Assembly (NCBI RefSeq): GCF_965224175.1
Contig: NZ_OZ245041.1
Coordinates: 1,456,249 to 1,520,248 of the forward strand
Reading direction: 5' to 3'
Origin: Kordia sp.
GTDB taxonomy: Bacteria; Bacteroidota; Bacteroidia; Flavobacteriales; Flavobacteriaceae
Length of the DNA stretch: 64,000 nt
Shown piece by piece: positions 33,803 to 37,797 of the stretch; the stretch's first letter is position 1; each line of letters opens with the position of its first letter. Both the position numbers and the translations under genes were made by a program. The notes under the pieces are model-generated. The model saw only the letters and a program-made list of their open reading frames with translations, did not search any database and was not told the origin of the DNA.

Positions 33803-34951
33803 ATGACGCAAAAAGAAGAAATACTCAATCTCCCAATATCCTTCAAAAACATACGATTGATTCGTTTGAATCTTCCACAAAAAGAACAATTTGTTTCTGG
33901 AATTGGTGTACGAAACTCTCGTGAAGCACTCATTATTGAATGGGAAGATATCAATGGAATCAAAGGATATGGAGAATGCTCATGTCGCCCTGATCCCTAT
34001 TATTCTGATGAATTTATAGAAGGCGCCATTGCGTTGGTAGAGCAATTTGTTGTACCATTTTTAAAGCAAAATCAAACATTTGGCGATCTTATTAAATTAC
34101 TAGATAAAATTCGTGGTTGGAATTTCACAAAAGCCGCTGTAGAAATGGCAGCTTTGCAAGTAATAGAAAAAAATACTGGAAGATCACCTTTTGAATTGCT
34201 TCAAACGAAGCCACTTGCACATGTTCCTGTTGGGATTTCGCTCGGACTCTACACAGAGTTAGACCGAATGAAAGAAGTTGTAAAAAATGCATTAGAAACA
34301 GGTTACAGAAGGCTTAAGTTTAAAATATCTCCAAACGTACGAATTGACTTTTTTGAAGAAATCAATCCGATGTTGTTTGAAGCTGATACCTACGTGAGTT
34401 TTGATGCAAATGGTAGTTTTGGTGAAAACGACTTAGAAATTTTCAATTATTTCGTAAACACTTATAAGACGATGGTTGAGCAACCTTTTGCACCAACTCG
34501 TTTTGATGTGTTATTGCAGGCTAAAAAAGAAAATCCAGCAGCTTTTATTTGTTATGATGAAGAAATAAAATCAATTGGAGATGTATTAAAATTACACCAT
34601 TTAGGTTTACTGGATGAAGTAAATCTAAAAGTTGGCCGTGTTGGCGGCGTACTAAAAAGTATTGAAATTATTCAATATTGTGCTGAACAAAATATTCCAT
34701 GCTGGATTGGAGGAATGTTTGAAACAGGTATTGGAAGATCACTCAATTTACGAATGGCTTCCTATTTACCAAATGCAAGAGCGCACGATTTGAGTCCTTC
34801 TGATCGTTACTTTTTAGAAGATATCATTCAACCAAATGTAACAATGAATAATGGTTTTGTGGCCATTGAAAGTTTACAACATTGTACAGTACAACCAAAT
34901 TTAATAGATAAATATACCATCGATCAAAAAACTTTAGAACTTACATGCTAG
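33803..34951 (+). CDS. Enolase-superfamily N-acyl(succinyl)amino-acid racemase / OSBS (NSAR/OSBS subfamily)
   Basis: KFK, DANG, EQP, DEE, NLKVGRVGG, WIGGMFETGIGR, DLSPSDRYF.EDII. Confidence 0.82.
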   Translation: MTQKEEILNLPISFKNIRLIRLNLPQKEQFVSGIGVRNSREALIIEWEDINGIKGYGECSCRPDPYYSDEFIEGAIALVEQFVVPFLKQNQTFGDLIKLLDKIRGWNFTKAAVEMAALQVIEKNTGRSPFELLQTKPLAHVPVGISLGLYTELDRMKEVVKNALETGYRRLKFKISPNVRIDFFEEINPMLFEADTYVSFDANGSFGENDLEIFNYFVNTYKTMVEQPFAPTRFDVLLQAKKENPAAFICYDEEIKSIGDVLKLHHLGLLDEVNLKVGRVGGVLKSIEIIQYCAEQNIPCWIGGMFETGIGRSLNLRMASYLPNARAHDLSPSDRYFLEDIIQPNVTMNNGFVAIESLQHCTVQPNLIDKYTIDQKTLELTC

Positions 34952-36516
34952 ATTTTTACATACAACATGCAACAATTTGCACCGGACATAAGCAAACTGC
35001 CAAAATTGGAAATGTAGGGATCCAAAATGATCGCATTGTTTGTATTCATTATGAAGGTCAAGATTTTGAACTTCCAGAAGCAACACAAACTATTGATGCA
35101 ACTGGACTTATTTTGACACCAGGTTTTATAGATCCGCATGCATCTACAGGTTTTGGTTATTTTTTCCCAAATGCTGCCGATCATAAGTTATATCAAGGAA
35201 TTACAACCGAAATATTTGGAAACTGTGGAACTTCGCCAGCACCAATTGGCAAACATTTAGACAAAACCATGAATCGTTTATCTGACGAAATTGGTTTTCC
35301 TTTTGAATGGCGATCTATGCAAGAATATTTTGATCAAATACAAGATAAATTACAATTCAATATTGCCACGCTTGTTGGACATAGTACATTACGTGCAGGA
35401 AATATGTACGATTGGCACAATTTACAACCATCGCAACTTGAAACTATGAAAACAGCTTTAGCAGAAGCGATGGATGAAGGTGCTTTGGGAATTTCTACAG
35501 GATTAATTTATGCGCCAGGTTGTTTTGCCGAAATGGACGAAATTGTTTCGTTAGCAAAAGTAACTGCCAAAAAAGGTGGTGTATATGCTTCACATGTTCG
35601 AAATGAACGTGATGGTTTGGAAAAAGCTGTTGAAGAAGCTCTTACTATAGGAAAACAAGCAGATATTAGAGTATTAATCAGTCATATAAAAGCAGCTGAA
35701 AAAGAAAATTGGGGAAAAATTCCGAAAGTACTAAACATGCTTGAAGAATTTAATAAAACAAGCAAATTGCAAGCGGCTTGCGATGTATATCCGTACACAG
35801 CAGTTTCTACAAAATTGCGCGCATTTATTCCTAAATATATGCTGCAAGATGGTATTGCTGCGGTTTCTGAGAAGATGAAAGATGCAGAAAATGTAAACGC
35901 AATAGCAGAATGGATTACAAAGAAAGATTACGACATGTCACGCATGTTGATTATTTCTGATGATTTAAAAGATTATTACAATAAAAATGTGTCTGAAATT
36001 GCAGAAGAAAATAATATATCATTAGCACAAGCTATTGCTGATATTTTAGCAGCAAGTACAGAAACTTGGGTGGTATATCATTGTATTGACCAAAAAGATA
36101 TTGATACAGCTGTGATGTGGCCAAACGCAATGATTTGTACAGACTCTTGGAGTTATCCTATCAATGCACCAAAAAGTATTGGTCAACCGCATCCAAGATC
36201 CTATGGAGCATTTACTGAATACTTACAACGCTTTGTCATTGACGAAAAAATGTTAGGTTGGGAAGAAGCAATTCATAAAATAACCTACTTGCCTGCTGAG
36301 TTTTTTCAACTGAAACACAGAGGTTTAATTGAAGAAGGCTATTATGCTGATATAGTATTGCTTGATCCAAATACGGTTAAAGCAAACGCGACTTATACAT
36401 CGCCAAGAGAATTATCGTCAGGAGTTGAGCATTTATGGGTTAATGGTTCACATTTAATTCAGCATACAAAAATACAGGATCAAACACCTGGAAAAGTATT
36501 GACATTGAAAGATTGA
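34945..36516 (+). CDS. N-acyl-D-amino-acid deacylase (D-aminoacylase, amidohydrolase superfamily)
   Basis: PGFIDPHAS, QGITTEIFGNCG, GISTGLIYAPG, SHVRNE, SHIK, D.YPY, CTD, HPRSYGAF, G.I.EG..ADIV. Confidence 0.88.
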   Translation: MLDFYIQHATICTGHKQTAKIGNVGIQNDRIVCIHYEGQDFELPEATQTIDATGLILTPGFIDPHASTGFGYFFPNAADHKLYQGITTEIFGNCGTSPAPIGKHLDKTMNRLSDEIGFPFEWRSMQEYFDQIQDKLQFNIATLVGHSTLRAGNMYDWHNLQPSQLETMKTALAEAMDEGALGISTGLIYAPGCFAEMDEIVSLAKVTAKKGGVYASHVRNERDGLEKAVEEALTIGKQADIRVLISHIKAAEKENWGKIPKVLNMLEEFNKTSKLQAACDVYPYTAVSTKLRAFIPKYMLQDGIAAVSEKMKDAENVNAIAEWITKKDYDMSRMLIISDDLKDYYNKNVSEIAEENNISLAQAIADILAASTETWVVYHCIDQKDIDTAVMWPNAMICTDSWSYPINAPKSIGQPHPRSYGAFTEYLQRFVIDEKMLGWEEAIHKITYLPAEFFQLKHRGLIEEGYYADIVLLDPNTVKANATYTSPRELSSGVEHLWVNGSHLIQHTKIQDQTPGKVLTLKD

Positions 36517-36517
36517 A

Positions 36518-37018
36518 ATGCAACAGATCATAAATATAAGAGAAGCAATCAACACTGATTTTCAGATAATTGCAAACATATATAACGAATATATTACACT
36601 GGGAACTTCCAATATGGAAGAAACCTTAAAAACTGCAAATGATATTGCAGCTTGGATAAAAAAATTCCACGATCGTGAAAAATTATTCGTCTTTACAGAA
36701 GATGATACTGTAATTGGTTGGGGAATTATAAAACGATATAGTGATCGTGAAGGCTATCGTTTTGCCTGTGAAACTGCCGTATATTTCACAGAAAGCAAAC
36801 TAGGAAAAGGATACGGAACAACAATGAAAAAATATTTAATTGCGCAATGCAAACAATTACAATACAAACATCTTGTTGCCAAAGTATTCGCCACAAATAC
36901 GGGAAGTATTGCCTATAATGAAAAACTAGGATATACGATTGTTGGGAGACAAAATCAAATTGGTTTTAAAAACAATCAATGGTTAGATATGATTATCATG
37001 CAATACATAATTGAATAG
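36518..37018 (+). CDS. GNAT N-acyltransferase (YncA/MnaT/Pat-like)
   Basis: IYNEYI, YRFACETAVY, GKGYG, N.GSI.YNEKLGY, WLD. Confidence 0.85.
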   Translation: MQQIINIREAINTDFQIIANIYNEYITLGTSNMEETLKTANDIAAWIKKFHDREKLFVFTEDDTVIGWGIIKRYSDREGYRFACETAVYFTESKLGKGYGTTMKKYLIAQCKQLQYKHLVAKVFATNTGSIAYNEKLGYTIVGRQNQIGFKNNQWLDMIIMQYIIE

Positions 37019-37056
37019 TAAGAGTAAGAAATTTGAATTAAAAAACCACGAAGGAC

Positions 37057-37797
37057 ATGATGTTACAAGAAGAAGTTTTAGCGCCAGCTTTAGAAACCTT
37101 AAAAACGTTGATACAAACGGCTGTTGAAAGTGAAGAAAAAATAACAGCTGCACGTATCAAAGATATTGTAGAACAAGCACAAATCACGCAGAAAGATTTG
37201 GAACCGTATGCAGATTTTGATCACCCAATTGAAGATGGTTACGGACGTAAAATGATTTATGATGGAGGAAAGTTTGAAATTATGGCAATGTCATGGAATC
37301 CTGGAGATTATTCTTCTATCCATAATCATGGATATACACAATGGGGCGTAGTACAAGTTTTTGGAAATGTACATCACTTTATTTATCAAAATAAAAACAA
37401 TCAATTGCGTTTTGCTAAGAAAGAGATTTTAACTTCTGGATCTATTGTAAAGGTTGTGAATGCAATGATTCACCAAATGGGAAATCCTTCTACAGATCGT
37501 TATATGACTTTACATATTTACGGATCTTGTGATAAAGCTGGAGATATTACAGCTGATGCAAAGAATTACGAATTAGAGCACGATCGTGTAAATCACACTA
37601 CAGGAGGCGCGTTTTTCAATCTGCCAGAAGATCAGATTTATGATTTTGAACCAGGACCGATTCCTACAGATGATGTATTTATCAACTATGCAAAGTTAAT
37701 GATTGATTATTACCACAGACAAGAACAAACTCCTGAAATTATAGAGTTAAAAACAAAATTGATGAAGAAATTACAAGAGCGAATTTGTCTTTCGTAA
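37057..37797 (+). CDS. Cysteine dioxygenase-family (3-His cupin) protein
   Basis: MSWNPG.YSSIHNHG..QWG, IHQMGNP, TLHIYG. Confidence 0.82.
   Translation: MMLQEEVLAPALETLKTLIQTAVESEEKITAARIKDIVEQAQITQKDLEPYADFDHPIEDGYGRKMIYDGGKFEIMAMSWNPGDYSSIHNHGYTQWGVVQVFGNVHHFIYQNKNNQLRFAKKEILTSGSIVKVVNAMIHQMGNPSTDRYMTLHIYGSCDKAGDITADAKNYELEHDRVNHTTGGAFFNLPEDQIYDFEPGPIPTDDVFINYAKLMIDYYHRQEQTPEIIELKTKLMKKLQERICLS

Follow-up and report, generated by a model that had tools for sequence, protein, structure and literature searches.

A four-gene operon at positions 33803-37797 of a 64,000-nucleotide stretch of the Kordia sp. genome (NCBI RefSeq assembly GCF_965224175.1, contig NZ_OZ245041.1, positions 1,456,249 to 1,520,248 of the forward strand; this whole stretch is called the window) encodes an enolase-superfamily enzyme of the N-succinylamino acid racemase/o-succinylbenzoate synthase (NSAR/OSBS) subfamily, a D-aminoacylase-family amidohydrolase, a GNAT N-acyltransferase, and a cupin with the fold of cysteine dioxygenase (CDO), referred to below as the racemase, the hydrolase, the GNAT, and the cupin (genes 1 to 4). 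The linkage of these four genes is far beyond chance and is conserved in at least two bacterial phyla. On sequence evidence, they are tentatively proposed to form a conserved metabolic unit that would use acyl-CoA to invert an L-amino acid to its D-form in an effectively one-way manner, with a thiol or oxidized-sulfur amino acid of cysteine or homocysteine type as the most likely substrate. Among the readings considered, this one has the best support and is quite possible though short of probable.

A survey of operon conservation had been suggested together with the original prediction, an acylate-racemize-deacylate operon, which a lack of conserved four-gene linkage would have refuted; the survey found the linkage conserved. 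One genome per species was scanned with a CDO-like alignment, which yielded 80 loci that were then searched by tblastn with the four Kordia proteins. Linkage was counted over the 54 loci with a cupin at least 46% identical to that of Kordia, of which seven are cut by contig ends, leaving 47 assessable loci. The complete set is found in 39 of these 47, and the eight incomplete loci comprise four without the racemase, two without the GNAT, one with the GNAT and cupin only, and one with the cupin alone. Carriers of the full operon include Kordia, Maribacter, Aureitalea, many Saprospiraceae, Cytophagales, Chitinophagales, and Gammaproteobacteria, the last represented by the complete Thiohalocapsa PB-PSB1 chromosome and a second metagenome-assembled genome (MAG), with an operon GC content of ∼60% that equals that of the flanks. 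Three arrangements occur: the usual order racemase-hydrolase-GNAT-cupin, the permuted order GNAT-cupin-racemase-hydrolase in Aureitalea, and, in another lineage, a cupin gene convergent on the opposite strand. Throughout these rearrangements, two sub-modules are always adjacent, the GNAT with the cupin and the racemase with the hydrolase, and no additional gene recurs beside the operon outside Flavobacteriaceae. Within the genus, a survey covering the racemase, hydrolase, and cupin found all three in the same 12 of 18 other Kordia species genomes and all three missing from the same six, complete genomes included.

These distributions bear directly on the possibility that the genes are chance or syntenic neighbors, with the enolase-family gene a spare OSBS and the other three independent of it. 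Such a reading could appeal to the name of the protein model that the racemase matches, o-succinylbenzoate synthase (TIGR01928), and to the bifunctionality of many NSAR/OSBS members (PMC12006748). It is strongly disfavored and so improbable that it can almost be set aside, given a linkage that outlasts rearrangement and inter-phylum transfer, three genes of which each surveyed Kordia genome has either all or none, and a separate menC-like gene located in the men neighborhood of the same genome.

Two observations touch the loci that lack a racemase. Replacement by a non-orthologous racemase was considered and rejected, as no racemase is encoded next to the other genes at any of the four, where the neighbors are a VWA protein, a MoxR ATPase, an ABC ATPase, or products of unknown family. 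At one of the four, in a Bacteroidia MAG, a rhodanese-domain protein of 346 aa (L054:8723-9763) directly follows the CDO-like gene, a sulfur-related neighbor seen once.

The four encoded enzymes

All four family assignments of the original prediction were upheld by comparison with curated models and solved structures. The racemase scores 208.6 bits against TIGR01928, a model that contains both NSAR and OSBS enzymes and has a curated cut-off of 200.65, and automatic mislabeling of this gene as o-succinylbenzoate synthase is probable because its score exceeds the cut-off of a model so named. Its best solved structures, 1wuf from Listeria, 1wue from Enterococcus, 1sja, 4a6g, and 2zc8, all belong to the NSAR/OSBS subfamily and include the N-acylamino acid racemases of Amycolatopsis, Deinococcus, and Thermus. 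The catalytic K172 and K174 of the KxK motif, the metal ligands D201, E226, and D252, the second lysine K276, and R279 are each at least 97% conserved among 38 operon-linked orthologs. R279 is the equivalent of R266 in Amycolatopsis numbering, a second-shell residue that has been tied to NSAR activity (PMC12006748).

The absence of men genes nearby, claimed at the outset, holds for the entire 64-kb window. Elsewhere in the genome, menD (1396583), menB (1390473), and a menC-like enolase-family gene (1385672) lie within 12 kb of each other (genome positions 1385672-1397914), ∼100 kb away from the operon, and because a separate menC-like gene stands beside menB and menD, an OSBS duty for gene 1 is unlikely. 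By the genome-context criterion of the Glasner laboratory (10.1101/2022.03.03.481873), NSAR rather than OSBS activity would be the expected biological role of gene 1, which is located outside the men operon in a genome with a separate OSBS-like gene. A third enolase-superfamily gene of this genome, outside the window (G000:C1:1935175-1936122, L002), is closest to the model of the N-acetyl-D-glutamate racemase DgcA, at 238 bits against a cut-off of 400, and is also near models of L-Ala-D/L-Glu epimerases.

The hydrolase matches solved D-acylases with E-values of 1e-61 to 1e-68, including those of Klebsiella (9g5m, 4.5e-68) and Alcaligenes (1m7j) and the N-acyl-D-glutamate deacylase of Bordetella (3gip), and it also matches the GlcNAc1A deacetylase OngB. 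These enzymes are β-mononuclear amidohydrolases of subtype V, in which Cys/His/His ligands bind the zinc and an Asp is catalytic (PMC12017989). The predicted zinc ligands C94 (GNCG), H217 (ASH), and H247 (SHIK), retained as originally reported, and the catalytic D400 have their counterparts in 1m7j and 9g5m and do not vary across 44 orthologs. The α-carboxylate residues K249 (the Lys that follows the second zinc His), Y282 (the Tyr of YPY), S288/T289, and R418 are equally invariant, which agrees with the earlier placement of the enzyme in the D-specific family; of these, S288/T289 and R418, the Arg of an HPR motif, presumably help to hold the carboxylate. Carboxylate-binding roles of the Lys and Tyr have been described for the family, and its characterized members AfDam, BbDam, and OngB all act on D-configured N-acyl α-amino acids (PMC12017989).

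One departure from the family, also noticed at the outset, is the motif at the end of strand 1, the α metal site, which reads H65-A66-S67 rather than HxH. All 44 operon-linked hydrolases examined, with identities down to ∼57%, carry DPHASTG or a close variant of it, and conservation reaches 98% or more at 162 of the 523 aligned positions. An exhaustive HMMER search of the hydrolase family found HAS confined to the three closest 50% clusters; apart from one degenerate relative, the ∼140 more distant representatives that were aligned have canonical HxH. The most divergent HAS-type hydrolase (47% identity) is also linked to the other three families, and two canonical relatives that were looked up lack the operon's neighbor genes. 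Because it is restricted to the linked clade, with HxH in the sampled unlinked relatives, HAS is a derived marker of this operon. It would also be a real mechanistic departure rather than a harmless one, since the PpOngB mutants H68A and H70A, each lacking one His of HxH, are both inactive (PMC12017989). We infer that Asp400 is positioned by Ser67 instead, and that an inhibitory second metal can no longer be accommodated at the α site.

Several other members of the hydrolase family were encountered. A 40%-identical relative (P0248, L114:181-1749) that adjoins a TspO/MBR gene has lost the zinc Cys (GNDG) and the catalytic Asp (SSASW), carries HGS for HxH, and is probably a pseudoenzyme. The long fusions P0246 and P0247 consist of amidohydrolase-type domains only (Amidohydro_3/_1 plus a Urease_alpha match). 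In P0344, the family is joined to an S13 D-Ala-D-Ala carboxypeptidase, which fits D-amino-acid chemistry in the wider family and is uninformative on the HAS clade.

The GNAT exceeds the cut-offs of Pfam GNAT domains and falls below those of all the curated equivalogs to which it was compared, ArsN1a (106 bits, cut-off 170), ArsN1b (90.5, cut-off 210), and PAT (71, cut-off 300). With solved relatives that include 3dr6 (YncA/MddA) and PA4866, it is best regarded as a relative of the PAT/MddA/ArsN1 group and not a member of any named equivalog. The enzymes of the nearest models acetylate L-amino acids with an oxo-anionic γ group, namely arsinothricin, phosphinothricin, and methionine sulfoximine or sulfone. 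This kinship raises the possibility that the operon detoxifies a glutamine-synthetase-type antimetabolite of the methionine sulfoximine/sulfone, phosphinothricin, or arsinothricin class, whereby the L-toxin would be acetylated, racemized, and freed as a harmless D-form while the cupin handles a sulfur variant. The best GNAT models and solved relatives are consistent with such a role, the former being resistance enzymes, as are the accessory distribution of the operon in the genus and its passage across phyla, as is often the case for resistance traits. However, all GNAT scores are below the curated cut-offs, acetylation by itself confers resistance in the known systems, and a thiol dioxygenase would be unexplained as these toxins have no thiol, so that detoxification appears improbable.

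The cupin scores 37.5 bits against PF05995 (cut-off 23), and its alignment with B. subtilis CDO extends over the YGR, HxH, H, and (S/T)-H-Y motifs. The three-His iron site (H89, H91, and H139) is invariant together with H153 and Y155, and T151 occupies the Ser position of the T151-H153-Y155 "SHY" motif. Y62-G-R64 corresponds to the YGR of B. subtilis CDO (rat Tyr58 and Arg60) and is also invariant, which indicates an Arg-type carboxylate site, the type of true cysteine dioxygenases, in the distinction between Arg-type and Gln-type thiol dioxygenases (PMC8050391). The structure model (pLDDT 90.5) has exclusively thiol dioxygenases as nearest Foldseek neighbors, with B. subtilis CDO the best match and the order 3eqe, 4qm9, then 3MDO, rat CDO, and the mercaptosuccinate and ergothioneine dioxygenases. 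Known CDOs are single-domain proteins of ∼160-200 aa in which the residue equivalent to rat Cys93 is Cys or Gly, and the Kordia protein differs on both counts. An invariant Trp96 stands at this position, aligned with Gly82 of B. subtilis CDO, and a conserved C-terminal domain of ∼85 aa (residues ∼160-246), confidently folded in the model, extends the protein to 246 aa.

Nineteen loci (L074:7968-9614 and 18 further loci among L075-L099) encode more distant CDO-like proteins, 36-45% identical and including the extra C-terminal domain, that are fused to a class I S-adenosylmethionine (SAM) methyltransferase in polypeptides of ∼548 aa. The fusions are found in Nitrospinota, Saprospiraceae, Phaeodactylibacter, and one Planctomycetota MAG, and the Nitrospinota genes adjoin an FGE-sulfatase/EgtB-like gene (eight loci) and a ParB_N-like gene (five loci). 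Searches with the methyltransferase part returned only generic class I SAM-methyltransferase matches and no specific function, and the fusion is a putative, uncharacterized thiol-dioxygenase-methyltransferase enzyme.

Net direction and purpose of the proposed pathway

In the proposed L-to-D inversion, the PAT/MddA-type GNAT would N-acylate an L-amino acid, the NSAR-type enolase would racemize the N-acyl amino acid, and the D-aminoacylase-type hydrolase would deacylate only the D-enantiomer, drawing the equilibrium to the free D-amino acid, while the CDO-like iron enzyme would turn the thiol into a sulfinate. The net direction is predicted to be L to D because the hydrolase comes from the D-specific D-aminoacylase family and not from the M20 L-desuccinylase family. 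A sulfur amino acid is suggested as substrate by the thiol-dioxygenase fold of gene 4, by the kinship of the GNAT to enzymes for oxo-anionic methionine and glutamate analogs, and by methionine derivatives, the classical substrates of the racemase, D-acylase, and GNAT families. Since the GNAT stays adjacent to the cupin and the racemase to the hydrolase, oxidation and acylation may come early and racemization and deacylation late. The sequence data establish the gene families, catalytic residues, operon structure, and conserved linkage, and from these we infer the acyl donor, the substrate, the L-to-D direction, and the order of the steps, including the position of the dioxygenase. A precedent for L-to-D conversion of an oxidized sulfur amino acid is the cysteate racemase CuyB, which feeds the D-specific sulfo-lyase CuyA (PMC11193023).

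Several observations weigh against this proposal. The hydrolase lacks the second His of HxH and may be slower, use a different mechanism, or have an altered specificity, and its insertion (specificity) domain, at ∼292-340, cannot be aligned with solved D-acylases. Acylation of the L-form by the GNAT is a presumed stereospecificity, and two loci lack the GNAT as four (L054, L061, L063, and L071) lack the racemase. No linked or co-varying consumer of a D-amino acid was found in the genus Kordia, and one marine metatranscriptome yielded only small contigs on the hydrolase and GNAT genes (e.g., 36851-37056), too little to show transcription. Lastly, CDO binds cysteine through its free amine (PMC8050391), which suits oxidation of an N-acyl intermediate poorly and makes the order of steps tentative. 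As for a sink for the D-product, two D-cysteine-desulfhydrase-family genes were considered and rejected, as one is unique to this strain, the other is present in all 19 genus genomes, and neither tracks the operon.

A reversed direction, D-to-L conversion or deracemization as in the Geobacillus NSAR or DgcN-DgcA pathways, would require that the HAS-type amidohydrolase has switched to L-specificity or that an unlinked L-acylase completes the route. Both characterized acylation-racemization pathways run D to L (10.1101/2022.03.03.481873; PMC10845958), and the HAS change and divergent insertion domain could accompany a change in specificity. Yet there is no variation in the residues that bind the carboxylate and so fix the D-geometry, a D-acylase combined with a D-specific acyltransferase would be a futile cycle, and no M20 L-desuccinylase, the enzyme encoded with the GNAT and NSAR in Geobacillus-type systems, is linked at any of the 54 loci, where the recurrent hydrolase is the D-aminoacylase-family protein. 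A D-to-L pathway is thus quite improbable.

A different purpose would be to salvage or repair some modified sulfur amino acid through acetylation, oxidation, and deacetylation, similar to the yxe pathway of Bacillus subtilis. The GNAT would mask the amine, the iron enzyme would oxygenate the sulfur of the N-acyl form, and the amidohydrolase would unmask the product, with the racemase only admitting both enantiomers or a D-configured environmental substrate and a D-amino acid not being the purpose. N-acetylation, S-oxygenation, and deacetylation by YxeL, YxeK, and YxeP are an established strategy (PMC9706529), the GNAT and cupin are the most constant adjacent pair and occur without the other two genes at loci L041 and L078, and the racemase-less loci are readily accommodated. 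Against these points stand a deacylase of the D-specific family rather than the M20 L-deacetylase family of yxe, a racemase in 39 of the 47 assessable loci with its NSAR residues preserved, and an Arg-type CDO site that would normally require the free amine. A yxe-type route is accordingly regarded as rather unlikely overall, although as an account of what the oxygenase does it deserves serious consideration.

In its most specific form, the L-to-D proposal describes a previously unrecognized route of D-amino-acid formation, the thioester-driven, irreversible inversion of an oxidized sulfur amino acid such as cysteine sulfinate, cysteate, or homocysteine sulfinate, with a strictly mononuclear HAS-type D-acylase and a two-domain thiol dioxygenase. 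Marine bacteria associated with particles or algae would use the D-product as a catabolic intermediate, signal, or building block. This extended version is considered unlikely as a whole.

Operon boundaries and neighboring genes

The positions and spacing of the four genes and the single terminator that closes them, as given in the original prediction, were reproduced exactly by the open reading frames and hairpins of Table 1. From the gene spacing, two terminators, and a promoter-like box, the four genes appear to be a discrete operon with its own promoter-like box, bounded by terminators on both sides. The box reads TATATTTG and agrees with the -7 consensus of Bacteroidota promoters, TAnnTTTG. 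No Rfam match to a riboswitch or other cis-regulatory RNA was found in the 5′ leader of the operon at E-values up to 1. Among named proteins, the nearest belong to Kordia algicida OT-1, whose four counterparts are 87-92% identical, and to other Kordia, and the four sequencing runs that contain the whole region are genomic DNA, with one 18.7-kb contig spanning the operon.

Table 1. Coordinates of the operon genes and boundary elements in the window
Feature	Position	Strand	Remarks
Intrinsic-terminator-like hairpin, 16-bp stem	33603..33642	+	Ends upstream gene 32881-33567; marks the 5′ boundary of the operon
TATATTTG promoter-like box	33755..33762	+	41 nt 5′ of the first ATG; read in the sequence
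NSAR/OSBS-subfamily enolase-superfamily enzyme, 382 aa, predicted N-acyl-amino-acid racemase	33803..34951	+	
D-aminoacylase-family (subtype V) amidohydrolase, 523 aa	34945..36516	+	7-nt overlap with the racemase gene
GNAT N-acyltransferase, 166 aa, PAT/ArsN1/MddA(YncA) type	36518..37018	+	1-nt gap after the hydrolase gene
CDO-fold thiol-dioxygenase-like protein, 246 aa	37057..37797	+	38-nt gap after the GNAT gene
Intrinsic-terminator-like hairpin, 12-bp stem and T-run	37820..37849	+	Closes the operon at its 3′ end

Downstream of the operon terminator lies a signal-peptide esterase (PF00756, enterochelin-esterase-like; 37894-38721, plus strand), which is placed outside the unit because it is near the operon only in Kordia and at varying distances. 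A module of an SbtA-like transporter (PF05982), a 97-aa SbtB-like protein, and a LysR regulator (44429-45382, minus strand; also at L021 and L067) is located just beyond the operon in Kordia, separated from it in this strain by the esterase and a toxin locus (38731-44204), and directly upstream of the permuted operon in Aureitalea. Its proximity could be a matter of synteny common to Flavobacteriaceae, or the module could be connected functionally, through uptake. On the other side of the operon, a sub-threshold match to the DUF805 RNA motif (RF03081; 32795-32857, plus strand; 43.6 bits against a gathering score of 51.1, E-value 1.3e-5) was found just 5′ of the unassigned gene 32881-33567.

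Relation to known systems

Promiscuity and functional divergence have a textbook example in the NSAR/OSBS enzymes, for which just one physiological NSAR context is established, a D-to-L pathway that relies on an M20 desuccinylase. Another context of opposite predicted direction, conserved across phyla, offers a concrete testable case and, if true, a natural counterpart of the industrial racemase/D-acylase cascade. Two new enzyme subfamilies are also of interest, a D-acylase clade without the supposedly essential second His and an Arg-type thiol dioxygenase that has gained a domain and carries Trp where the crosslink would form, as is possible new marine sulfur or D-amino-acid chemistry in alga-associated Bacteroidota. 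A full-text literature search found no description of a natural operon with an NSAR and a D-acylase or of a CDO-linked unit of this kind, with incomplete coverage that makes it no proof of novelty. Each component family and the acylate-racemize-deacylate logic are known; novelty lies in how they are combined, in the direction predicted for the pathway, and in the HAS-type hydrolase clade and the two-domain cupin.

The closest relative in logic is the Geobacillus NSAR pathway (10.1101/2022.03.03.481873; PMC12006748), which shares acylation, racemization by an NSAR/OSBS-subfamily enolase, and stereospecific deacylation, with hydrolysis as the irreversible step, and likewise encodes the GNAT and racemase in one operon. 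It uses an M20 L-desuccinylase and runs D to L, whereas the Kordia operon has a D-aminoacylase-family amidohydrolase and is predicted to run L to D, with a thiol-dioxygenase-like fourth enzyme that the Geobacillus pathway lacks. The hosts differ as well, Bacteroidota and Gammaproteobacteria for the Kordia-type operon and Firmicutes and Chloroflexi for the Geobacillus-type pathway. The DgcN-DgcA pathway of D-glutamate (NF042940; PMC10845958) also begins with N-acetylation followed by enolase-superfamily racemization of the N-acetyl amino acid, but it runs D to L, ends in N-acetyl-L-glutamate, a normal metabolite, has no dedicated deacylase or oxygenase, and employs a racemase of the dipeptide-epimerase-like branch.

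Sulfur metabolism provides two further comparisons. The yxe pathway for S-(2-succino)cysteine (PMC9706529) combines a GNAT, a sulfur-directed oxygenase, and an N-acyl hydrolase in one operon with transient N-acetylation, yet it relies on a flavin monooxygenase (YxeK) and an L-specific M20 deacetylase (YxeP) and has no racemase, in contrast to the iron cupin, D-acylase-type hydrolase, and NSAR of Kordia. CuyB and CuyA (PMC11193023) share with the proposed pathway the physiological L-to-D conversion of an oxidized sulfur amino acid, but CuyB is a direct racemase without acyl intermediates, and the Kordia operon has no CuyA-like partner by either linkage or co-variation. The industrial dynamic kinetic resolution with a D-acylase and an NSAR, the "Amidohydrolase Process" (PMC12149444), uses the same two enzyme families and converts racemic or L N-acyl amino acids wholly to D-amino acids; it is an engineered cascade with a chemically acylated feed, whereas the Kordia operon is a natural one with its own acyltransferase and oxygenase and a hydrolase of the HAS type.

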